Positions 5,870 to 25,936 of a stretch of DNA of 32,000 nucleotides are shown here, one piece after another (within the stretch, counting starts at the first letter, position 1; the number at the start of each line of letters is the position of its first letter). This DNA is from Nostoc punctiforme PCC 73102 (GTDB lineage Bacteria > Cyanobacteriota > Cyanobacteriia > Cyanobacteriales > Nostocaceae). Position numbers and translations under genes: made by a program. The notes below the pieces were generated by a model. The model was not told the DNA's origin. It saw nothing but the letters and a program-made list of their open reading frames with translations, and did not search any database. The stretch lies in contig NC_010628.1 of assembly GCF_000020025.1 (NCBI RefSeq), positions 4,710,001-4,742,000 of the forward strand. Reading direction: 5' to 3'.

Positions 5870-6628
5870 ATGCCTGATGAGCATCGGTTGGAGGAAAAAT
5901 TTTTATCCCAGGAAGCTGAAAGAAGAGTATCTGAAAAGCTAGATGAAGTAGAAAAAATAGAAATAGATGTACAAACCGATCTGTTTAAAATAGTTCAGGG
6001 ACAGGCGGATGGAGTTTCGGTTGCAGGACAAGGATTAACGATCGAAAAAGATATTCGCGTACAAGAAATAAAACTGCAAACAGAAAGTATTACCATTAAT
6101 CCCTTAAGCGCCCTTTTTGGCCAAATAGAACTTAACGATCCAGTAAATGCCATTGCTCGTATTATACTCACAGAAGTAGATATGAACCGCACCTTGGCAT
6201 CAGACTTTGTTCGCAGCAAGATGCAAGATTTTGATTTGGATGTAGATGGCAGAATTGTAAGTTTTGAAGCACAAAAAATTGAAATATTTTTACCTGGTGA
6301 TGGCAAAATAGAATGTAGGGGAAGAGTACTGTTAAAGGAAAAGGGAAATACTCGCCCTTTGGCTTACACTGCGATCGCACGTCCACGCACTCATTCACAA
6401 CCCGCGATGCTGGAGAGTTTTAACTGCACTGAGGGCGGGGGAATTTCCATAGAAGTAGTTACAGCTTTAATGCAGAAAGCAAAAGAGTTGATGAATATAC
6501 CATATTTTAAATGGAAAGATATGGTGTTTCATATTAAAGATATAAAAGTGGAAACTGGTAGTTTAATACTGATGGTAGAAACTCAAGTGAGGCAAATACC
6601 ATCATCGTCAAATTTTTCATCTACTTAG
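5870..6628 (+). CDS. DUF2993 / LmeA-like (putative lipid-binding) protein
   Basis: 252-aa ORF preceded by TAGGAGA. The sequence pattern (IEIDVQTD..K..QG.ADGVSVAGQGL...D.RVQE..LQT..I.INPLSA.FG.IEL..P) matches my recollection of cyanobacterial DUF2993 proteins. No search was run. Confidence 0.5.
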   Translation: MPDEHRLEEKFLSQEAERRVSEKLDEVEKIEIDVQTDLFKIVQGQADGVSVAGQGLTIEKDIRVQEIKLQTESITINPLSALFGQIELNDPVNAIARIILTEVDMNRTLASDFVRSKMQDFDLDVDGRIVSFEAQKIEIFLPGDGKIECRGRVLLKEKGNTRPLAYTAIARPRTHSQPAMLESFNCTEGGGISIEVVTALMQKAKELMNIPYFKWKDMVFHIKDIKVETGSLILMVETQVRQIPSSSNFSST

Positions 6629-9222: not shown

Positions 9223-9966
9223 ATGATTGTTCAGCGCTGCTTCGTTGCATCTGGTTTGATAGCTTTCTTCGCATTTGGTTGTAGTGGTGGGGCAAACTCA
9301 TCAATAGAAAATACTACACAAGTTGTCCAAGAAAGTAATGTAACCCAGCTTTTCATAGAAGCGAAGGCTACCCAAAAAGCAGAAGACTTTTTTCATCAAG
9401 GTAATAATTTATTAGATGGACAACGTTATGAAGATGCAATAAAGGCATACGATAAAGCGATCGCCATCAAAGTTGAGAGTCCTGAAGCTTGGATTAACCG
9501 TGGCATAGCTTTAACATCGTTGCAACGTTACCAAGATGCTCTTGCATCCTATGATAAAGCGATCGCGATCAAACCCGATAAATATGAAGCCTGGTATAAT
9601 CGTGGCATAGCTTTGACATCGTTGCAGCGCTACAAAGACGCGATCGCATCTTACGATAAAGCGATCGCCATTCAACCCAACAAATATCAAGCCTTAATTA
9701 ACCGAGGCATTGCACTGACAAAGCTACACCGCTACCAAGACGCGATCGCATCTTATGATAGAGCGATCGTCATCAAGCAAGATTTGCACCAAGCATATTA
9801 CAACAAAGCTTGCTCTTATGCTTTACAAAGCAATTTAGAATTGGCAATTGAGAACCTAGACAAAGCAATTGAGCTTGTTCCTGATAAATACAAGAAATTA
9901 GCAAAAACTGATCCAGACTTTAGCAAAGTGCGTAGTGAAAAGCAATTTCAGGAATTAATCCAATAG
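9223..9966 (+). CDS. TPR-repeat lipoprotein / secreted TPR protein
   Basis: 247-aa ORF. The N-terminal hydrophobic signal ends in a lipobox-like FAFGC. It is followed by about five 34-aa TPR units with high internal similarity (AW.NRGIALTSLQRY.DA.ASYDKAIAIKP). Confidence 0.8.
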   Translation: MIVQRCFVASGLIAFFAFGCSGGANSSIENTTQVVQESNVTQLFIEAKATQKAEDFFHQGNNLLDGQRYEDAIKAYDKAIAIKVESPEAWINRGIALTSLQRYQDALASYDKAIAIKPDKYEAWYNRGIALTSLQRYKDAIASYDKAIAIQPNKYQALINRGIALTKLHRYQDAIASYDRAIVIKQDLHQAYYNKACSYALQSNLELAIENLDKAIELVPDKYKKLAKTDPDFSKVRSEKQFQELIQ

Positions 9967-10044: not shown

Positions 10045-10917
10045 ATGAAAAAATTGTTAATCACCGGAGCAAGTGGTTTTTTAGGATGGCATCTTTGCCA
10101 GCTTGCAAAACCAGAATGGGAGATTTATGGCACTTATTTATCCCATCCTTTAGAGATTCCTGGCATTAAAACGTTAAAAGCAAACTTAACAAATTTCCAG
10201 GAATTAAAACGCATATTTAATGATGTTAAACCAGAAGCAGTTATTCATACTGCTGCCCATTCGCAACCAAATTTTTGTCAAACAAACCCCAAAGAATCGC
10301 ACGCAATTAACGTTATCGCATCATGCAATATTGCCGGACTTTGCGCGGATAATTCTATTCCTTGTGCTTTTACTTCAACCGACTTAGTTTTTGATGGCTT
10401 AAATGCTCCCTATCAAGAAATAGATGCCGTGTGTCCTGTCAACCTTTACGGTGAGCAGAAAGCGATCGCAGAAGCAGGTATGCTAGAAAGATATCCTCTG
10501 ACAGCAGTGTGTCGAATGCCCTTGATGTTTGGTGCAGCAACACCGACAGCAAAAAGCTTTATTCAGCCATTTATTCAAACTTTACAAGCAGAAAAAGAAC
10601 TAAATTTATTTATAGATGAATTTCGCACACCAGTAAGTGGAACAACTGCCGCTAAAGGACTTTTATTAGCATTAGAAAAAGTTAACGGCATCATTCACTT
10701 AGGTGGCAAAGAGCGGCTTTCGCGTTATGATTTTGGAAAAATATTAGTTGAGGTATTTCAACTCCCCACTACCAAGCTCAAATCTTGCCGACAAGAAGAT
10801 GTGAAAATGGCAGCACCTAGACCAGCAGATGTTTCTTTGGATAGTTCCAAAGCTTTTGCATTGGGGTATCAGCCTTTATCTTTAAAAGAAGAATTGCAGA
10901 ATTTAATCAATAGTTAA
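10045..10917 (+). CDS. NAD(P)-dependent SDR, RmlD-like (dTDP-4-dehydrorhamnose reductase family) sugar reductase/epimerase
   Basis: The Rossmann motif LITGASGFLGWHL sits directly after the ATG at 10045. The ORF track's TTG at 10024 is less likely to be the start. The catalytic YxxxK is present (YGEQK). The stop codon overlaps the stop of the convergent NTPase gene (TTAA at 10914-10917). Confidence 0.75.
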   Translation: MKKLLITGASGFLGWHLCQLAKPEWEIYGTYLSHPLEIPGIKTLKANLTNFQELKRIFNDVKPEAVIHTAAHSQPNFCQTNPKESHAINVIASCNIAGLCADNSIPCAFTSTDLVFDGLNAPYQEIDAVCPVNLYGEQKAIAEAGMLERYPLTAVCRMPLMFGAATPTAKSFIQPFIQTLQAEKELNLFIDEFRTPVSGTTAAKGLLLALEKVNGIIHLGGKERLSRYDFGKILVEVFQLPTTKLKSCRQEDVKMAAPRPADVSLDSSKAFALGYQPLSLKEELQNLINS

Positions 10918-12036
10918 TCATCAGGTTGTATTTGTTGTGTACCTAACCAATGACGGAAGCTGGAATGATAGAGACTATAATAAGTTTCTCCGTCAATTTG
11001 TTCTTGGTGTAAGAATTCAAGCCAACTTTCTAGAACTTCCTCAACTTCATATTCATCAGTATCAATGATTTCTGCAATTGCTTCTACTGAGATTGCTTTT
11101 TGCTGCTGAATTAGGACATTTAACACATCTGTGCTATGTTCCGTCCCTTGTTTGGGTGGAATCATTTGGTGTAAATGCTGCTGATAATATGCTTCTAAAG
11201 CAGGCGGGAGTTCATTGTACTGAAAAGGTTCCGCACTTATTATCTGACTGACATACATAAAATTATTCTCGCTCAAAGTGGTGATGCGATCGCAGAAATT
11301 TTCCTCATTAATCTGGTGATTACTCAACCAAGATTTAATATCCCCCCTTGTTAAGGGGGGTTGGGGGGATCTCTTCAACGCTTAGGTAACTTTGAATATA
11401 AGCTTGAATATCCCGCCGATTTTCTTCTGGATAATCTGCCAAATCCAGACTTTGCGATGGCGTTTCAATTAATAAACCCGACTTCTCCCGCAAAAAAGGT
11501 CTACGAGTGAGGAGAAAATAGACCCTATCGGGGAGATAGCGGGGGAGATAAAACAGATTTGTCCCAGGTGGTTGGCTATTGCGGTCAATGCAATTCAACC
11601 CATCAATGGCAATTATCAGTTTTTGATGAGGTTCTAACTCATCGCTGATTTGCTGGAGAAGACTAGAGAAAAACCAACTTCCCTCTGTGGCGTTATCTGG
11701 GAGGGAGGCGTAACTAAGCGAGTATTGATTAATTAGTTGCGTGCAGATATTTATGAGAAATTCGTCACCCCGATTTTTACCCTCAAGTTCGGCATTGTAA
11801 TAAATCACGTGAGGATTATCTGCCACATATTTGGCAAGGATGGCACTTTTACCGCTACCGGGTGCGCCAATGATGGTGAAATAACCGTGGCGATGGCGGT
11901 GGAGAAAGTTGTTAATAGCCGTGAAGACAAATTCACGACCGACAAAGTTGTGGCTTTTTTGTTGAATGATTTCCTCAAACTCCCTTGGATGTCCTCTGGA
12001 ATTGATTGCAGTGGGTGGTTTGGGTGATGAGTTCAT
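10914..12036 (-). pseudogene. NACHT-like STAND NTPase (paralog A), split into two ORFs by a 31-nt palindromic insertion
   Basis: The upstream ORF (11335-12036) carries Walker A GAPGSGKSA, Walker B LIIAIDGLN and FLLTRRP. The downstream ORF (10914-11378) is in another frame and continues the homology to the 507-aa paralog (SENNFMY, EWLEFL..Q.IDGE.YYSLYHSSF). Deleting 11340-11370 fuses them into a 363-aa ORF. Confidence 0.8.
11340..11370. repeat. 31-nt palindromic small dispersed repeat inserted in the NTPase gene
   Basis: The sequence is ATCCCCCCTTGTTAAGGGGGGTTGGGGGGAT. It has nested hairpins (CCCCCCTT/AAGGGGGG and ATCCCCCC/GGGGGGAT). Its length is 1 mod 3, which is exactly the frame offset between the two ORF halves. 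Confidence 0.75.
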
Positions 12037-12081: not shown

Positions 12082-12645
12082 ATGACTGTGCAGTTATTAA
12101 GACGGAAGTTCACAGTTGAGCAATTTCATAAAATGATTGAGTCGGGGATTCTGTCAGAAGATGACCGGGTGGAATTGATTCGGGGAGAGATTATAGAGAT
12201 GTCGCCTATTGGGACAAAACACGCTGCTTGTGTCAATCGACTGATTAATTTGTTGATGCAGTTGTTGGGAAAGCGCGTCATACTTGCTGCTCAAAATCCA
12301 ATTGCATTGAACAATAACTCAGAACCTCAGCCAGATGTAGCATTACTCAAACCCCGTGATGACTTTTATGAAACCGCACACCCCCAACCCCAGGATATTT
12401 TTTTACTAATTGAAGTAGCTGATTCGACTGTCATGTATGACCGGGAAGAGAAAATTCCTTTATATGCCCAAGCAAACATAATTGAAGTTTGGTTAGTAGA
12501 TATTAACGAGCAAATTGTCGAAGTTTATCAACAGCCAACAGCTGCAAGATATCAGTTTATGCAAAAGTTTGCTAGCGGTCAAACTTTATCAATTCCAGCC
12601 TTCCTCGACGTGAATATTACCGTCAAGGAAATCTTTGGCAGATAA
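12082..12645 (+). CDS. Uma2-family (DUF820) putative restriction-endonuclease-like protein
   Basis: 187-aa ORF with the typical Uma2 N-terminus (FTVEQFHKMIESGIL.EDDRVELIRGEIIEMSPIG.KHA) and the later E-V-L/VD core (LLIEVADST..YDREEK.PLYA...I.E.WLVD). Its start is only 45 bp from the divergent NTPase A start. Confidence 0.85.
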   Translation: MTVQLLRRKFTVEQFHKMIESGILSEDDRVELIRGEIIEMSPIGTKHAACVNRLINLLMQLLGKRVILAAQNPIALNNNSEPQPDVALLKPRDDFYETAHPQPQDIFLLIEVADSTVMYDREEKIPLYAQANIIEVWLVDINEQIVEVYQQPTAARYQFMQKFASGQTLSIPAFLDVNITVKEIFGR

Positions 12646-12659
12646 CATTATTTCTCCCC

Positions 12660-13888
12660 TCATCCCTCTCTCATCCCTTCAAGGCGCAAAAAATGTACCC
12701 TACCTGATTGTTCCCCTGCGACAATTGTCATGCCATCTGGTGCAACAGCGCAGCAATTGATAGGATATTCCCCCGTGAAAGTGGTAATAACCTTTCCAGT
12801 TAAAAAATTCCAGACTTTCAGGGTGTTGTCATCGGAGGCAGAAATCACCTGTTGCCCATTGGGGGTGACGGCGACGGCTTTTACCCAGTCACTATGACCA
12901 TTGAGGGTGAATTGTTCCTCCCCTGTTGCCAGATTCCAGACTTTCAGGGTGTTGTCAGAGGAAGCAGAAATCACCTGTTGCCCATTGGGGGTGACGGCGA
13001 CGGCTTTTACCGAGTCACTATGACCATTGAGGGTGAATTGTTCCTCCCCTGTTGCCAGATTCCAGACTTTCAGGGTGTTGTCATCGGAGGCAGAAATCAC
13101 CTGTTGCCCATTGGGGGTGACGGCGACGGCTTTTACCCAGTCACTATGACCATTGAGGGTGAATTGTTCCTCCCCTGTTGCCAGATTCCAGACTTTCAGG
13201 GTGTTGTCAGAGGAAGCAGAAATCACCTGTTGCCCATTGGGGGTGACGGCGACGGCTTTTACCCAGTCACTATGACCATTGAGGGTGAATTGTTCCTCCC
13301 CTGTTGCCAGATTCCAGACTTTCAGGGTGTTGTCAGAGGAAGCAGAAATCACCTGTTGCCCATTGGGGGTGACGGCGACGGCTTTTACCGAGTCACTATG
13401 ACCATTGAGGGTGCGGAGTAAGCGTCCTCCTGCTGGAGTTAAACTACGGGTTAAGGGACACAGCCAAGGGGTAGTTTTCCCTTGCTTTATTTTGCCAATA
13501 ATGCCTGAATTTCCTCTGGCATTTTCTCATGTAGTAACCGTCCGTGCAATTGACTCGCTAATTGCTGCTTATCTATTACTAAAATATGTGCTGATAGTCT
13601 CAATACTCCTTGAATTAATTTGAGACTTTTAACTTTTTCAGAGTTATATTCTGGATAATTTAATGTCTCTACATCATCAATTAAATCATAATCTTCAATT
13701 AGCGACTGCACCCCCAATTCAGGATAGTTAATCTTGTCAGTGATGAATTTAAAATCAGTCAGAGTTGCATAATACTTCTCTAAATTTTCTGATTTGACCA
13801 GATTATAAGGATATCTATCTAGACGAGCTTTTTGGGAATAGGATTTTTTTGCTTTTGATTTTTTATGAGTCTTCATCATCTTCCTCAT
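12660..13888 (-). pseudogene. STAND linker domain plus six-blade WD40 beta-propeller, interrupted by a -1 frameshift at 13487-13493
   Basis: ORF 13487-13888 encodes the helical linker typical of cyanobacterial NACHT-WD40 proteins (YYATLTDFKFI...LKLIQGVLRLSAHIL...QLASQLHGRLL). The -1 frame continues without a start codon as IKQGKTTPWLCPLTRSLTPAGGRLLRTLNGHSD and then WD40 blades ending in GRVHFLRLEG. One extra A in the A4 run would give a 409-aa protein. Confidence 0.7.
12808..13413. repeat. 126-bp tandem repeat array (about 4.8 units) encoding WD40 blades
   Basis: Units start at 12842, 12968, 13094, 13220 and 13346. The units at 12842, 13094 and 13220 are identical base for base. The others differ only at one codon (TGG/TCG) and one codon cluster (GCT TCT / GCC GAT). 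Confidence 0.95.
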
Positions 13889-13921
13889 TCTCCCGTTCCC
13901 AGTAATCTACAATACGTTGAT

Positions 13922-15445
13922 TCACTTTTTAAGTAGCTTACGCTTTGTATTCAGAACTGGTTTAGATTTGAGAAAGTCTAGAAAACTAGCATGGTATATG
14001 CTGTAACAATTGTCTCCATCGATTGTCTGCTCCTTCAAATACTCAACCCACTCATCTAAAACTAATTGCACATCATATTCCTCCTGTTTAGCAATATCTG
14101 CTATCATCTTCCACGTAATTGGTGTGCCAATCTCCACTAAAATAAACAGGATAAATACTTTTACTTCTTGGGGCTTTACATCCATTCTCATCCGTACCCA
14201 ATGAACTTGATAATAGTCCTGAAGACCATCGGGTAATTGCGTTAAATTTAGGTCTTGATAGTCACCTTTAGCAATTCCTGGCAAAACATAGCGCAGGTAC
14301 ATGAAATTATTTTCGCTCTTAGTTGCTACCTGCTCAACAAAATCATTATCATCAATATTGCGGTCTTTAATCCATTGTCTAAGTGCCTTCTTATGGTCTT
14401 CATCGACATTCAAAAATAACCCAATATACTTTTTGATATCTTCACGGCTCAAATTAACATAGTCATTTGCCCTTAAATCTAGCTCCTCCATCGGGACATC
14501 TGGTGCAGACAAGCGTTTTTTATCTATAGTATATGGTCGTCTAGTCAGCAGAAAATAGACACGTTCCGGTAGCGCCGTTGGTAAATCTAAAAGATTTCCC
14601 CCAGCTTCTTGCTCCACTTCATCCAAAGCATCAACTACAATTACCAGACTTTCACTAACAGGAATTCTCTTACTAACTTGTTCTAGTAAATCAGCTAAAT
14701 TAGCCTTCTCGACATTCTGCAACTGGTAACGCTTACTTAATTGCTTGCGAATACTTTCAAGAAATAGCTCCGCTCGATTGCTACTAGTTTGGCGAATATT
14801 AAAATAGCATGGTGATTTATTATCCCAAACGTATTTAGCAGCAATAGTACTCTTCCCCATCCCCGCATCACCCGCTACTGTAAAATAACCACTGCGATTT
14901 TTATTGCAAAATTGCTTAAATGCGTCAAAAACAAACTGACGACCACAAAACGAGCGAATTTTTTCTCTAATTAACGACTTAAATTCTGTTGGATACTCAT
15001 CTAAATTCCATTCAGGGAAAGGCTCAAACTCTATTGATTTACTTCTTTTAGCAACCTGAATAAATATTTCCCCAAATTCCTCCAACTGCGATCGCAGTTC
15101 AATTTTCATCAATCGGATATCATATTCTGAATCCGTTCCCTGCAAAAACTTTTCTACTTTCTTGTAGAAACCCAAAGGATTATTTGAAGTATAAGCACTC
15201 CAAAAAGCATTTTTAATTTCTCTTTCTCGAAAAAGATTCAGCAGTACTTCCTGCTTATCCACACCATACTCAATTAAAGAATAAACATAAACACCATCAA
15301 CATCTTTAGGTGGTTGTACTGGGTCAAAATTGAATTGTTTTAAGGTTCTAACTACAGTTTCATTGCGTTGAGCTTGATTAATAACTAGAGAAGCCTCAGG
15401 TTTAGCAATACTTTTAAGTGCATTAACTACAGGGTCAATATTCAT
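13922..15445 (-). CDS. NACHT-like STAND NTPase (paralog B) with an N-terminal domain of about 175 aa and unknown function
   Basis: 507-aa ORF with Walker A GDAGMGKST, Walker B LVIVVDALDEVE, FLLTRRP, and a C-terminal winged-helix-like end (EWVEYL..QTIDG..CYSIYHASFLDFL). It is colinear with paralog A from FCGRQFVF onward. Confidence 0.8.
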   Translation of the reverse strand: MNIDPVVNALKSIAKPEASLVINQAQRNETVVRTLKQFNFDPVQPPKDVDGVYVYSLIEYGVDKQEVLLNLFREREIKNAFWSAYTSNNPLGFYKKVEKFLQGTDSEYDIRLMKIELRSQLEEFGEIFIQVAKRSKSIEFEPFPEWNLDEYPTEFKSLIREKIRSFCGRQFVFDAFKQFCNKNRSGYFTVAGDAGMGKSTIAAKYVWDNKSPCYFNIRQTSSNRAELFLESIRKQLSKRYQLQNVEKANLADLLEQVSKRIPVSESLVIVVDALDEVEQEAGGNLLDLPTALPERVYFLLTRRPYTIDKKRLSAPDVPMEELDLRANDYVNLSREDIKKYIGLFLNVDEDHKKALRQWIKDRNIDDNDFVEQVATKSENNFMYLRYVLPGIAKGDYQDLNLTQLPDGLQDYYQVHWVRMRMDVKPQEVKVFILFILVEIGTPITWKMIADIAKQEEYDVQLVLDEWVEYLKEQTIDGDNCYSIYHASFLDFLKSKPVLNTKRKLLKK

Positions 15446-15627: not shown

Positions 15628-15685
15628 GCGCGTAGGCATAACCCTTCGTAGACATTGCCTAGCTATTTCGAGTTCCAAAGCTCAA
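15628..15685 (-). repeat. Dispersed Nostoc-type repeat (copy A), homologous to 23696-23752
   Basis: The reverse complement reads TTGAGCTTTGGAACTCGAAATAGCTAGGCAATGTCTACGAAGGGTTATGCCTACGCGC. It aligns by eye at roughly three quarters of positions with TTGAGTTTGGATCTCAAAAGGGCTAGGCAATATCTATGACGAGCTACGCCTACGCTC at 23696-23752. Confidence 0.7.
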
Positions 15686-15750
15686 CTTTGACCTTTTGAG
15701 GCTCAACTTTGACCTTCTGAGGCTCAACGTTGACCTTCTGAGGCTCAACT
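15677..15750. repeat. 21-bp tandem repeat, about 3.5 copies (GAGGCTCAACTTTGACCTTCT)
   Basis: Copies lie at 15677, 15698 and 15719, with a partial copy at 15740, and carry 1-4 substitutions each. The array sits between the gcvP terminator and the NTPase B start. Confidence 0.9.
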
Positions 15751-21759: not shown

Positions 21760-23526
21760 CTAGCGATATGCTTCTTTTAAAAAGCTGGCATAATTTGCCC
21801 GAATTGTCATAGTAGTAGGATGACCTACACCTAAAGTTCGTTCGCAAATTTTCAAAGCTTGTTCAAATAAGGGTTTGGCTTTCTTATAGCGTCTTGTCTG
21901 ACGGTAGAGTGCTGCAAGATTGTTCAGGCTAATGGCGACATCGGGATGTTCCTCTCCCAGTAGGCGTTTACTCAGTTCTAAAGCTTGCTGATACAAAGGT
22001 TCGGCTTTACTGTAACGTCTTGTAGATTCGTAGAGTTGTGCTAAATTATTCAGGCTAGTGGCGACATCAAGATGGTTGTCTCCTAGCAGGCGTTTTCTCA
22101 TTTCTAAAGCTTTTTTCAGCAAGGGTTCGGCTTTGCTATAGCGCCCCATATAACAGTACAATGCTGCTAAATTGTTCAGGGTAGTGGCAACATGGGGATG
22201 TTCTTCTCCCACTAGGCGTTTCCACAGTTTTAAAGCTTGCTGATACAAAGGTTCAGCTTCTTTGTAGCGTCCTGTAGATTCATAGAGTAATGCTAAATAG
22301 CTCAAGGTAGTGGCAACATCGGTATGTTCCTCTCCCAACAGGCGTTTTCTCAGTTCTAAAGCTTGCTGATACAATGGTTCAGCTTCGCTGTAACGTCCTG
22401 TAAAATCGTAAAGTTGCGCTAAATTGTTCAGGCTAGTGGCGACATCGGGATGTTCTAAACCAAGACGATTTTTAGTTAGTTCTACACACTGTTGTAACCA
22501 AGATTCTGCTTGCTGATAAAGTCCTTGACCTTGATAAAACCAGGCTAATTTGGTAAACAGAGTAATGAGATTTTCATCGCTCACATACTGGGATAGGTGG
22601 GTTGCAACTTCTGTTATGTGCGGGATATGTGGAGTGAGATTGGCAATATCTTCAGGGGTAAGCTGTTGCGGAATTAGCTTTGCTACCTCTAACATCATCG
22701 CTGCAAATTTAGTTTTTGCTTCATCCGCCTCGCCTGACTTCTCCAACTTCATTTGGAAAAGTTGCCGAATCATTGGATTTAGACGATAAATTCCTTGACT
22801 TTCCTGTTGTAGTAAATGTAATTCGAGTAAGTCGGCTATAGCTTTATCCCAAAGTTCTTGTTTTTTATCATCTTCTACCGTCCCAATAGATAAGGGAATG
22901 TTAGCTAAGGCAGACAAACTTAGCAAACAGCCAAAGCTTTTTGCATTTTCATCCAACAGTTCCCAACTCAACTCAAAAGCTTCAGCTACACCGTCTTTAT
23001 CAAACATCAATGAGCGATCATTGACCACGTTTTCATGTTCCACTCGCTTTTTCTCTAGCCGCTTCAGTAGTGTTTCCAGAGACAAATCTGGCATCTTATT
23101 CAGATATTGTCCTACTAACTCTAACGCTAAAGGTAAATATCCTAAAAATTTACAAATCCTTCTCGCAATCCAAGGTTCTTTTTGCAGTCTTTCCCGAGCC
23201 ACTAGCGTTTTTAATAATTTCATCGCCGCTAATGGTTTGAGGATATTCAATTCGGTATTATATTTTGCTGTCAGGTAAGATTGTAACTTTTGTAGTTTGT
23301 CCTGACTTTTGGAAATTGTTAACTCAGGATAGTTTTGGGCAAACTTGTTATATACTTCACCTAGTAATTTTTTGAAATCAGCAATATCAACATTTAATTC
23401 GCTAGCAAGTTCCGCTTCATTTTTACCTAAGTTTTCAGTCTGAAAATACTCTATAAAAGCTGCCGTTTGCTGTATGGATAAGCCATGAGTAGCAGCTTCT
23501 TTGGCTAGAAAATTAGCCCATTGCAT
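21760..23526 (-). CDS. HTH - ARC (NB-ARC C-terminal subdomains) - TPR protein lacking the P-loop nucleotide-binding core
   Basis: 588-aa ORF. The N-terminal 90 aa or so resemble a LuxR/sigma70-region-4-like HTH (LSIQQTAAFIEYF...NEAELASELNVDIADFKKLLGEVYNKF). This is followed directly by the ARC motif KFLGYLPLALELVGQYL and a winged-helix part, then about six 42-aa KLC-type TPR units (H.DVATSLNNLA.LY...GRY..AEPLYQQALE..KRLLGEEH). No GxxxxGK[ST] occurs anywhere in the ORF. Confidence 0.75.
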   Translation of the reverse strand: MQWANFLAKEAATHGLSIQQTAAFIEYFQTENLGKNEAELASELNVDIADFKKLLGEVYNKFAQNYPELTISKSQDKLQKLQSYLTAKYNTELNILKPLAAMKLLKTLVARERLQKEPWIARRICKFLGYLPLALELVGQYLNKMPDLSLETLLKRLEKKRVEHENVVNDRSLMFDKDGVAEAFELSWELLDENAKSFGCLLSLSALANIPLSIGTVEDDKKQELWDKAIADLLELHLLQQESQGIYRLNPMIRQLFQMKLEKSGEADEAKTKFAAMMLEVAKLIPQQLTPEDIANLTPHIPHITEVATHLSQYVSDENLITLFTKLAWFYQGQGLYQQAESWLQQCVELTKNRLGLEHPDVATSLNNLAQLYDFTGRYSEAEPLYQQALELRKRLLGEEHTDVATTLSYLALLYESTGRYKEAEPLYQQALKLWKRLVGEEHPHVATTLNNLAALYCYMGRYSKAEPLLKKALEMRKRLLGDNHLDVATSLNNLAQLYESTRRYSKAEPLYQQALELSKRLLGEEHPDVAISLNNLAALYRQTRRYKKAKPLFEQALKICERTLGVGHPTTMTIRANYASFLKEAYR

Positions 23527-25792: not shown

Positions 25793-25917
25793 CAATGCAT
25801 CGGCTGCATCGTTAATGCACTGGCTTACAATCTTAATGCATCGGCTTACAATCTTAATGCATCGGCTTACAATCTTAATGCGTCGGCTGCATCGTTAATG
25901 CATCGGCTTACATTGTT
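25793..25917. repeat. Tandem array of six 20-21-bp units, most carrying an ATGCAT palindrome
   Basis: Units of TAATGCATCGGCTTACAATCT (21 bp) alternate with TAATGC(A/G)TCGGCTGCATCGT (20 bp). Unit starts are near 25793, 25814, 25835, 25856, 25877 and 25897. The array lies between the mutS stop (25937) and the downstream membrane-protein gene. Confidence 0.9.
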
Positions 25918-25936
25918 AAGGAAATGCGGTGAGATA

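Follow-up and report, generated by a model that had tools for sequence, protein, structure and literature searches.

Near-identical WD40 repeats in the frameshifted NACHT locus of Nostoc punctiforme PCC 73102

Is an array of WD40 repeats that are almost identical in DNA, and vary at two codons, part of a working bacterial receptor? The question is raised by a 32,000-nt stretch of the cyanobacterium Nostoc punctiforme PCC 73102 (contig NC_010628.1, positions 4,710,001 to 4,742,000, forward strand), referred to here as the window and numbered from its first letter. A previous sequence-only reading took the array for a rapidly reshuffling recognition surface with cassette-like switching and an unstable number of blades. 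We favor a different account, to which we assign a probability of roughly three in four: the array is the WD40 sensor of an NLR-like (NACHT) conflict locus, which was amplified recently, after which the locus decayed.

Two unit types in a 126-bp array

Tandem Repeats Finder and translation place the array, encoding WD40 repeats 1-5, at 12807-13413 on the minus strand (period 126, 4.8 copies, 97% matches, score 1158). In agreement with the sequence-only reading, which described three identical 126-bp units and others varying at two codons, the units at 12842-12967, 13094-13219, and 13220-13345 (plus-strand starts as used there) are the same across 126 bp without a mismatch. Four nucleotides are changed in the unit at 12968-13093 (13012, 13084, 13085, and 13089), which on the coding strand read TGG to TCG, TCT to GAT, and the synonymous GCT to GCC; this fourth unit carries three non-synonymous nucleotides within two codons and one linked synonymous change. 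TCG is also present in the partial unit 13346-13413. Units are 97-100% identical in DNA and differ at no more than two of 42 residues. Chance is ruled out as a source of the array: a 38-mer of the unit occurs five times, against zero expected, and none of 50 shuffled windows contained any repeated 20-mer.

Translation of the minus strand gives blades with the GHSD-x-V / SAS-x-D states S/S, W/S, W/D, S/S, and W/D, and after these five near-identical blades the degenerate closing repeat FLTGKVITTFTGEYPINCCAVAPDGMTIVAGEQSGRVHFLRLEG, matching the order given previously (S/SS, W/SS, W/DD, S/SS, W/DD, and a degenerate closing blade). When the units are phased from SASxD to QQVI, only two haplotypes appear, alpha (S...W, three copies) and beta (D...S, one full copy). 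The array edges show the beta 3' state in the first partial unit and the beta 5' state in the last unit (12663-12842, minus strand); the first 36 nt of the latter are repeat in the beta state (GCC..GAT), while its remainder encodes a closing blade that has not been amplified and the C-terminal tail, both conserved among orthologs.

The DNA identity among units implies very recent amplification or homogenization, which supports the earlier proposal of recent duplication or concerted evolution. In their near-identity and their scarcity of synonymous differences, the blades are those of a recently amplified WRAP-like propeller, and the array lies above the threshold for repeat identity (0.7 or more) that defines Highly-Repetitive WD40 proteins (Hu 2017). 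Unequal recombination or slippage, acting on a single 126-bp unit, may have formed or homogenized the five blades; over five units, the S/W and S/D states do not tell a single unequal crossover from a block duplication.

Variable codons and the predicted propeller

The array lies within an open WD40 frame of 288 codons plus TGA (12660-13526, minus strand), made up of the linker TPWLCPLTRSLTPAGGRLLRTL, the five amplified repeats, and the closing repeat. The frame matches PF00400 in five stretches (E=7e-66, 216 bits versus a cutoff of 27), and its AlphaFold model (pLDDT 93.7, pTM 0.88) contains 24 strands, predicting six four-stranded blades arranged as a propeller. The model superposes on the 7-bladed WRAP-T, PkwA, and 2YMU at 1.5-1.7 Å over about 250 columns. 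Among solved structures, the nearest relative is WRAP/2YMU, a protein that PCC 73102 itself encodes (E=5e-147, about 47% identity, rmsd 1.5 Å). Apaf-1 also appears among the sequence hits.

To place the variable codons on this fold, hotspot definitions were taken from Wu et al. 2012 (PMC3419727), in which R1-2 sits just before strand a and D-1 belongs to the turn that joins strands b and c. The V-K-A-V of the blade is the eta-R1-R2-eta bulge, and by these definitions the two variable codons correspond to R1-2 and D-1. In the AlphaFold model, S28 is directly ahead of strand a (29-34) and S46 lies between strands b (40-45) and c (49-54). This mapping, based on DSSP positions and homology, supports R1-2 and D-1 as top-face positions of the array, where the sequence-only reading had put its variable residues. 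The alignment of orthologous repeats that it had proposed as a check also places both among the five most variable positions: across 191 orthologous repeats, D-1 ranks first and R1-2 fifth in entropy among 42 positions, and the five highest-entropy positions are 39 (D-1), 16, 20, 23 (R1), and 21 (R1-2). Within the PCC 73102 array, amino-acid differences have been kept only at R1-2 and D-1, the putative specificity-determining positions of the family. The parallel drawn earlier with fungal HET-E/NWD repeats is apt, and has already been published, including for bacteria (PMC13449251, PMC5587647).

Decay of the locus

Lying directly downstream of an NNH5-NACHT gene, the array takes the place of a C-terminal sensor in a STAND ATPase system. 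This gene, A (13922-15445, minus strand, 507 aa), was assigned NNH5, NACHT NTPase, and winged-helix regions from Pfam and motifs. NNH5 (PF22736) is matched at E=7e-46 (155.9 versus a cutoff of 27), while NACHT (PF05729) scores 25.9 versus a cutoff of 26.7 and the NPHP3_N match is weak. In translation, Walker A reads GDAGMGKST and Walker B VVDALDE, fitting the NACHT signature (GxxxxGK[ST] and D[GAS]hDE, here DALDE). Gene A also matches Avs1b in PADLOC (2e-11), in the NTPase region only.

The order A|B(|Uma2|C) was found in more than 40 loci. The sensor gene, B, is separate in all of them, and in intact relatives its start abuts or overlaps the gene A stop; gene A is about 520-533 aa long in almost every complete locus, with 521 the commonest value and the approximate length in syntenic orthologs. 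Almost every complete locus departs in this from the canonical NLR, whose NOD module and repeat sensor form a single chain. In intact relatives, gene A codes for an NNH5-NACHT-winged helix protein, and gene B for WD40 repeats preceded by a helical domain resembling Apaf-1 HD2. The proposed role of the propeller top face, drawn from the analogy with Apaf-1, Avs, and bNACHT proteins, is to bind a ligand signaling non-self or danger and so license NACHT oligomerization. Domain homology suggests an immune function for the locus, and the defense-library matches (Avs1b, PDC-S03) are weak.

In PCC 73102, this locus has decayed: A is truncated, the propeller is detached from B, and gene C is broken in frame. 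The 5' part of gene B (13487-13888, minus strand) encodes an all-helical domain of 133 aa ending in a premature TAA, with a weak match to APAF1_C (PF17908, E=0.0011, below cutoff); a homolog model has eight helices ahead of the propeller. Alignment to orthologs locates a 1-nt deletion between 13493 and 13492 (13490-13495, minus strand), where the window reads TTGGCA-AAATAAAG and all orthologs TTGGCACAAATAAAG, shifting the WD40 domain into the -1 frame. The same deletion is present in a Logan contig (L001) recovered from 13 samples. Gene A is truncated by a second 1-nt deletion, located by alignment between 13931 and 13930 (13928-13933, minus strand; CTACTT-AAAAAG versus CTATTTCAAGAGG in orthologs); restoring the Desmonostoc-type frame would give a product of about 526 aa with the end ...VNQRIVDYWERENEEDDEDS. 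Independent Logan assemblies carry the two deletions as well. Gene C, a second STAND ATPase gene (10914-12036, minus strand) of about 400 aa in orthologs, is split here into 233 and 154 aa inside a variable C/G-rich insert. Between C and B, directly after gene B, lies a conserved Uma2-family endonuclease gene on the opposite strand (12082-12645, plus; Pfam E=4e-36), which matches the PADLOC candidate PDC-S03 (1.6e-19). The PCC 73102 proteins at the locus are ACC82138, ACC82137, and ACC82139, and for the stretch separating Uma2 from the NACHT gene GenBank has no protein accession.

PCC 73102 gene B has no uninterrupted frame from a start codon through the sensor and, because the deletion at 13493/13492 cuts off the remainder of the gene, the array does not belong to a functioning receptor in PCC 73102. 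No ATG, GTG, or TTG occurs before 13352 in the WD40 frame, and hence none ahead of the first blade. An own promoter for the WD40 ORF was considered and dropped, as a consensus scan was near background (14 sites versus 8.9 expected, none convincingly placed). The WD40 frame itself is fully open over its 288 codons, which fits very recent decay and also residual expression. Given the deletions in A and B and the break in gene C, we regard the array as a young relic of birth-and-death turnover in an immune-type sensor rather than an active switching device, with amplification probably coming first and the frameshift later in the PCC 73102 lineage.

Related arrays and alternative readings

Elsewhere, an uninterrupted gene carries the same unit: gene B of Nostoc sp. 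S13 (L032) is intact and contains the PCC 73102 unit in 4+1 repeats, at 96-97% DNA identity. This speaks for amplification while the gene was still functional. The two versions differ only at codons 20, 21, 23, and 39 and at two linked synonymous sites; all four amino-acid differences are at hotspots. Four-fold sites of the unit show 0/22 differences from S13, versus 29/150 in the adjacent NACHT gene A; in the genomes closest by gene A, the blades have diverged by 0.30-0.38 at such sites. The junction of A and B is itself a mosaic: a tract covering the gene A 3' end and the gene B 5' start (13805-14043, minus strand) is 0.82-0.87 identical to a Desmonostoc-type cassette (L047), versus 0.40-0.75 to syntenic orthologs. 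These three observations led us to consider that blade DNA might be a scaffold moving between paralogous and orthologous sensor genes and between lineages, with R1-2, R1, and D-1 setting specificity and the frameshifted array serving as a silent reservoir, donor or recipient; we hold this extension tentatively, and as rather unlikely. The contig collection scanned for relatives, which is without the PCC 73102 genome itself, gave a best match of 92%, and JGI metagenome contigs contained no same-unit arrays (0 matches to a 66-nt degenerate and a 38-nt exact pattern).

Hotspot variation, discordant histories of gene A and array, the mosaic A/B junction, and units identical at synonymous sites between strains are also what a functioning, actively reshuffled surface would produce, switching cassette-like at two codons and unstable in blade number. 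Syntenic orthologs contribute to this case with arrays of 1 to 15 WD motifs. Part of that range may be short-read collapse, which is likely enough in metagenome-assembled genomes that their arrays of 1-4 repeats were not counted as length variation. Against active reshuffling in PCC 73102 stands the frameshifted gene B with no canonical start ahead of blade 1. Cassette-like switching is not supported: only two unit haplotypes exist, both accounted for by the variant states at the array edges, and no donor is present in the window. Allowing up to 3 mismatches, the 32-kb window contains no further copy of the unit, and a Pfam scan of its 16 larger ORFs gave no reverse-transcriptase family; a DGR or donor-cassette mechanism was rejected on these two grounds. 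Nor do six blades point to unstable length, as had been suggested, for the closest intact homolog, from Desmonostoc muscorum (same subtype, 8.86-Mb contig), likewise has 5+1 repeats. Taken together, active reshuffling appears improbable.

Could the sensor still be made? Translation might slip by -1 at GCA AAA TAA (13487-13495) or start separately at the propeller, with gene A read through at CTT AAA AAG TGA. Both breaks are indeed 1-nt deletions in A-rich runs, with a Lys codon followed by a stop and a -1 shift needed, and the three frames are uninterrupted apart from them; the slip product would read ...ALLAK-IKQGKTTPWL versus the orthologous ...ALLAQIKQGKTTPWL. However, neither deletion occurs in any of 43 related loci, leaving no hint of a conserved programmed frameshift site. 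Runs of A4-A5 are short for efficient slippage, separate translation would lack a canonical start ahead of blade 1, and gene C is broken as well. Programmed frameshifting was judged unlikely, its sites being shared by no ortholog, and we see little prospect that the sensor is produced by any of these routes.

The reverse order of events, in which the frameshift came first and slippage or unequal exchange then expanded the repeats without selection in a dead gene, draws on the ease with which tandem repeats expand and on the position of the array in a broken gene. Such neutral expansion is hard to reconcile with a unit showing hotspot-only differences in the intact B of Nostoc sp. S13, with the 5+1 count of the intact Desmonostoc homolog, or with a frame in which all structural residues are kept, and it too has only a slim chance of being correct. 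That unit number or order is an assembly artifact, through collapse or expansion, is barely credible: short-read assemblies do fragment at the array (window position 13360 is as far as the Logan contigs reach, some ten related contigs stop within roughly 600-850 bp of the gene A end, where the array begins, and some metagenome-assembled genomes have suspiciously short arrays), but at 606 bp the array could be spanned by a single Sanger read, the genome presumably having been finished by Sanger sequencing, the frame of the array is intact with a count equal to that of the intact homolog, and contig L001 confirms the unit sequence.

Recent amplification followed by decay, the reading we prefer, has precedents. 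Amplified WD40 propellers of cyanobacterial STAND ATPases have reportedly been described by Chaudhuri (2008), Dunin-Horkawicz (2014), Afanasieva (2019), and Pereira and Lupas (2022). Recently amplified WRAP-like propellers on such ATPases are often disrupted by frameshifts (PMC9218822), and the array is a further case of this published kind, whose type example, the WRAP of Npun_R6612 (PDB 2YMU), lies in the same genome. Both have near-identical 42-residue blades with almost no synonymous differences and belong to STAND NTPase systems, and relatives of WRAP are often frameshifted. WRAP has 14 blades, whereas the array has five amplified blades and one non-amplified closing blade; the array's sensor is in a gene (B) separate from the NTPase gene (A), its partner is an NNH5-NACHT protein rather than a TIR-STAND operon, and the PCC 73102 array is itself frameshifted. 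The array also resembles the highly repetitive WD40 proteins of Hu et al. 2017 (PMC5587647), whose hotspots vary: its internal identity is far above 0.7, and its variation is concentrated at predicted interaction hotspots. As the array ORF has no GenBank protein accession, it is probably absent from the UniProt-based catalog of those authors.

The fungal HNWD proteins (HET-E, HET-D, HET-R) resemble the locus in combining NACHT with WD40 repeats that are 80-100% identical, in having a few hypervariable top-face sites while the repeats are otherwise conserved (seen here over 191 units), and apparently in repeat gain, loss, and exchange with frequent pseudogenes. In contrast, the present locus is bacterial, has an NNH5 N-terminus without a HET domain, shows no RIP, and encodes NTPase and sensor on separate polypeptides. 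With Apaf-1, bNACHT, and Avs it shares a STAND NTPase with a C-terminal repeat sensor and a helical domain ahead of the propeller, but it is split between genes, has six repeats, and owes its putative defense role to homology.

For annotation, the locus is best treated as a set of frameshifted genes, and it adds a documented case of amplification, diversification, and decay for NLR-like sensors in multicellular cyanobacteria. Three leads emerge: NACHT module and sensor are conserved as two genes with abutting or overlapping stop and start, blade DNA may be exchanged separately from the NTPase gene, and the six-repeat sensor form recurs among intact genes. These can guide the choice of intact homologs, such as that of Desmonostoc muscorum (P0048) with its partner, for tests of NLR ligand recognition. 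Models of six-repeat B proteins give six blades in seven-fold geometry, a predicted arrangement in which the propeller could be completed in trans.

Array structure and its precedents

The tandem array at 12807-13413 encodes, with a probability of about 0.75, an NLR-like WD40 sensor that was amplified within a functional gene and then recently inactivated in PCC 73102. The array lies on the minus coding strand and has a period of 126 bp, 4.8 copies and 97% matches (score 1158). Three units are identical (plus-strand coordinates 12842-12967, 13094-13219 and 13220-13345), while that at 12968-13093 differs from them by four bases (13012, 13084, 13085, 13089), read on the minus strand as TGG to TCG (W to S), TCT to GAT (S to D) and a silent GCT to GCC; TCG is also present in the partial first unit (13346-13413). 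Translated at GHSD-x-V and SAS-x-D, the repeats are S/S, W/S, W/D, S/S and W/D; a divergent repeat closes the series. Coordinate check and translation thus confirmed exactly the unit identities, variant codons and blade order of the sequence-only reading. Because shuffles of the window contained no repeated 20-mer and one 38-mer from the unit is found five times against zero expected, a chance origin of the repeats is excluded.

The array was classed as WD40, as highly repetitive WD40 and as a WRAP-like recently amplified propeller. By both sequence and structure it is matched best by 2YMU, the WRAP domain of Npun_R6612, likewise a recently amplified WD40 propeller and encoded in the same genome. 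Pereira & Lupas 2022 (PMC9218822), citing Dunin-Horkawicz 2014, describe such propellers on cyanobacterial STAND ATPases, many broken by frameshifts or stops, which they read as rapid turnover tied to innate immunity. Hu et al. 2017 (PMC5587647) compiled a catalogue of highly repetitive WD40 proteins whose hotspot sites vary, and a 2026 survey (PMC13449251) places high-internal-conservation repeats in NLR architectures, bacteria included. Near-identical WD40 repeats with variable sites are also the pattern of the fungal HNWD literature (PMC13449251). Since these bodies of work cover the pattern, the phenomenon is already published and the locus adds one further case. Unlike fungal HET-E/NWD genes, it is bacterial, split and without a HET domain, which rules out identity with them.

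Read in the phase SASxD...QQVI, the array has two unit haplotypes only: alpha, S...W, is present three times, and beta, D...S, once in full. At the edges, the beta 3' state is seen in the first partial unit and the beta 5' state in the last, so that each variant found inside the array also occurs at an edge. With so restricted a repertoire, active cassette switching is an improbable account of the array.

A split locus with recent frameshifts

Gene A (ACC82138; 13922-15445, minus), deposited as a 507-aa "hypothetical/NACHT" protein, matches Pfam NNH5 (E=7e-46) and, weakly, NACHT, NPHP3_N and AAA; its translation contains GDAGMGKST and VVDALDE, the latter fitting the NACHT signature D[GAS]hDE. 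Gene B comprises a helical part (13487-13888, minus; weak Pfam APAF1_C match) and the WD40 ORF (12660-13526, minus; Pfam WD40, E=7e-66). Pfam further identified an antisense Uma2 gene (ACC82137; 12082-12645, plus) and gene C (10914-12036, minus), which encodes another STAND-type ATPase and is present as two pieces. GcvP is ACC82139. Exact sequence matches assign the window to the chromosome of Nostoc punctiforme PCC 73102 / ATCC 29133. No protein accession was found between ACC82137 and ACC82138, and the WD40 ORF was therefore not deposited as a CDS.

Gene A, used as query against species-representative genomes, retrieved 43 related loci, most of them from Nostoc. The gene A product is ~520-533 aa long (commonest 521) in nearly all complete loci, and gene B starts at, or overlapping, the stop of gene A. 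The junction (window 13860-13930; loci L005-L045, ~9540-9570) reads ...ATGGCGTGAAATGGGAGAA... (...ATGGCGTGAAATG...) in the syntenic type, and in the Desmonostoc type (L047) the genes overlap by 14 nt (6001-6014). In the gene B product the linker PWLCPLTPSLTPPGG-LLRTL joins a helical domain to n WD40 repeats, and a closing repeat that is conserved (...CCAVAPDGMTIVAGExSGRVHFLRLEG) comes last; gene B is followed by the antisense Uma2 gene and, in syntenic Nostoc loci, by gene C. Because the NACHT and helical-WD40 genes are separate, as is conserved from Nostoc to Coleofasciculus, the family is a "split" NLR-like system with NOD module and sensor on different polypeptides; a single-chain NLR is thereby ruled out. 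The Uma2-family endonuclease gene always follows gene B directly in antisense orientation, including where the cassette occupies another genomic site (L047 7224-7787), and the window copy has a PADLOC match to the candidate defence family PDC-S03 (E=1.6e-19). In Desmonostoc (L047 4144-4410) the NACHT gene carries an HTH-like N-terminus in place of NNH5 and has a CyanoTRADDas_TM gene divergently upstream, so the effector/adaptor end has been swapped and the B sensor type kept.

DNA alignment of the window with six orthologues located two 1-nt deletions. The first, between 13931 and 13930 (CTACTT-AAAAAG against CTATTTCAAGAGG in the orthologues), truncates gene A. The second, between 13493 and 13492 (TTGGCA-AAATAAAG against TTGGCACAAATAAAG), stops the helical part at TAA and leaves the entire WD40 domain in the -1 frame, where no ATG, GTG or TTG occurs ahead of 13352, already within blade 1. 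The frame of gene C is lost inside a length-variable C/G-rich insert (CCCCCC...GGGGGG), different in every orthologue, that splits it into 233 + 154 aa at 11290-11400; its Walker B region, IIAIDGLNC, is without the NACHT DE pair. Logan contig L001, which recurs across 13 read sets, carries both the A and the B deletion, and 29 index blocks contain the 507-aa product; the deletions therefore belong to the strain itself and are no sequence error in the window. Nothing else interrupts the three frames, so that the decay is recent. Slippage by -1 at GCA-AAA-TAA would give back ...ALLAK-IKQGKTTPWL and rejoin the helical part to the WD40 frame, but the frameshift sites are absent from every other related locus, and residual sensor expression by such slippage is unlikely.

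Variable residues and repeat number

Wu et al. 2012 (PMC3419727) defined the top-face hotspots R1, within the bulge pattern eta-R1-R2-eta, R1-2, two residues ahead of R1, and D-1, the residue ahead of the tetrad Asp. The bulge in GHSD[W/S]VKAV is V-K-A-V, making K the R1 residue and the W/S site R1-2; the variable site of SAS[S/D]D is D-1. An AlphaFold model of the 270-aa WD40 product (12663-13472; 22-sequence alignment; pLDDT 93.7, pTM 0.88) places S28 immediately ahead of strand a (residues 29-34) and S46 between strands b (40-45) and c (49-54), in the b-c turn. In WD40 propellers, the top face is made up of these loops. Across 191 42-residue units of orthologous arrays, entropy is highest at positions 39 (D-1, 3.46 bits), 16, 20, 23 (R1) and 21 (R1-2). 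On these grounds, the proposal that both variable residues lie on the top face holds.

The suggestion that six blades betray an unstable length fared differently. The closest intact homologues with the window-type B N-terminus (MTKTEKKS..KKSYSRKAYLGRYPYNLV), P0048 (Desmonostoc muscorum LEGE 12446, 8.86-Mb contig; unit identity 0.90-0.94) and P0050, are both 402-403 aa with five amplified repeats and a closing repeat, and five, six or seven repeats are each common among 46 complete helical-WD40 homologues. Six repeats are therefore no evidence of instability but a recurrent intact form. Models of the window WD40 domain and P0048 (pLDDT 90.2) contain six four-stranded blades, the last strand being the N-terminal WLCP segment, and can be superposed on propellers of seven blades with 1.2-1.7 A over ~250 columns, which would imply a seven-fold-like geometry with one slot empty, whether real or predictor bias. 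The models suggest an open 6-of-7 ring, its last blade closed by the WLCP strand. In vitro, a WRAP construct of six blades assembled into homo-tetramers.

Mosaic history of the locus

Orthologous arrays contain 1-15 WD motifs (commonest 13-14) with mean inter-unit DNA identities of 0.58-0.87; 0.98 is reached only in the window and in Nostoc sp. S13 (L032, a short-read MAG), which is syntenic with intact A and B genes. The four S13 units are 96-97% identical to those of the window, while aligned flanks average ~83-92%, and all differences lie at codons 20 (D/N), 21 (W/S), 23 (K/N) and 39 (S/F/D), apart from two silent changes that go with the GAT variant. At four-fold sites the two differ at 0/22 positions in the unit and 29/150 in gene A (probability ~0.01 under equal rates). 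Conversely, the genomes L005, L006 and L009, whose gene A is closest to that of the window (0.07-0.11 at four-fold sites), have far more diverged blades (0.30-0.38). In a sliding comparison the window follows L005 and L009 from 14700 to 14044 (0.87-1.00), and the Desmonostoc cassette from 14043 to 13805 (0.82-0.87, against 0.40-0.75 for syntenic orthologues). This four-fold-site discordance and mosaicism indicate that NTPase and sensor have different histories, and blade sequences are exchanged or homogenised faster than the remainder of the locus, in agreement with published accounts of rapid turnover.

The Desmonostoc-type tract (~240 bp) spans the 3' end of A and the 5' start of B, includes the gene A frameshift, and suggests recombination between paralogous cassettes. 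The exact unit 38-mer (GTCGCCGTCACCCCCAATGGGCAACAGGTGATTTCTGC) occurs in 12 of 46 loci (L004, L006, L008, L011, L012, L013, L015, L020, L032, L040, L041, L043); fully matched gene A proteins of these species are only 83-92% identical to that of the window, so the blade DNA is unusually conserved across lineages.

By analogy with Apaf-1, NLR, Avs and bNACHT, the propeller top face of intact relatives would bind ligand and control NACHT activation. The sequence patterns suggest that unequal recombination or slippage amplified or homogenised the units inside a functional gene, with recent inactivation following in PCC 73102. Neutral expansion after gene death has little probability. Short-read assemblies end at the array start (L001-L003, L004, L008, L012, L013, L018, L020, L022, L023, L040, L041), as an assembly artefact might lead one to expect, yet such an origin is very improbable. 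The Logan contig breaks off at window position 13360, and some metagenome-assembled genomes with 1-2 repeats only (L007, L011, L042, L043) may contain collapsed arrays.

Other repeats occur in the window. A second 126-bp (42-aa) tandem repeat (21904-22455, 75-80% identical; ORF 21760-23526, minus) encodes TPR_12, TPR_10 and NPHP3-type TPR units of a 588-aa protein that may be another repeat sensor. TPR repeats of 102 bp (34 aa; 9448-9776, 77% identical) lie in ORF 9223-9966 (plus), encoding a small protein whose N-terminus resembles a signal or lipoprotein sequence. Tandem repeats of 21 bp are found at 15680-15750, intergenic, upstream of gene A and partly conserved in Nostoc sp. S13, and at 25794-25919, just downstream of mutS.
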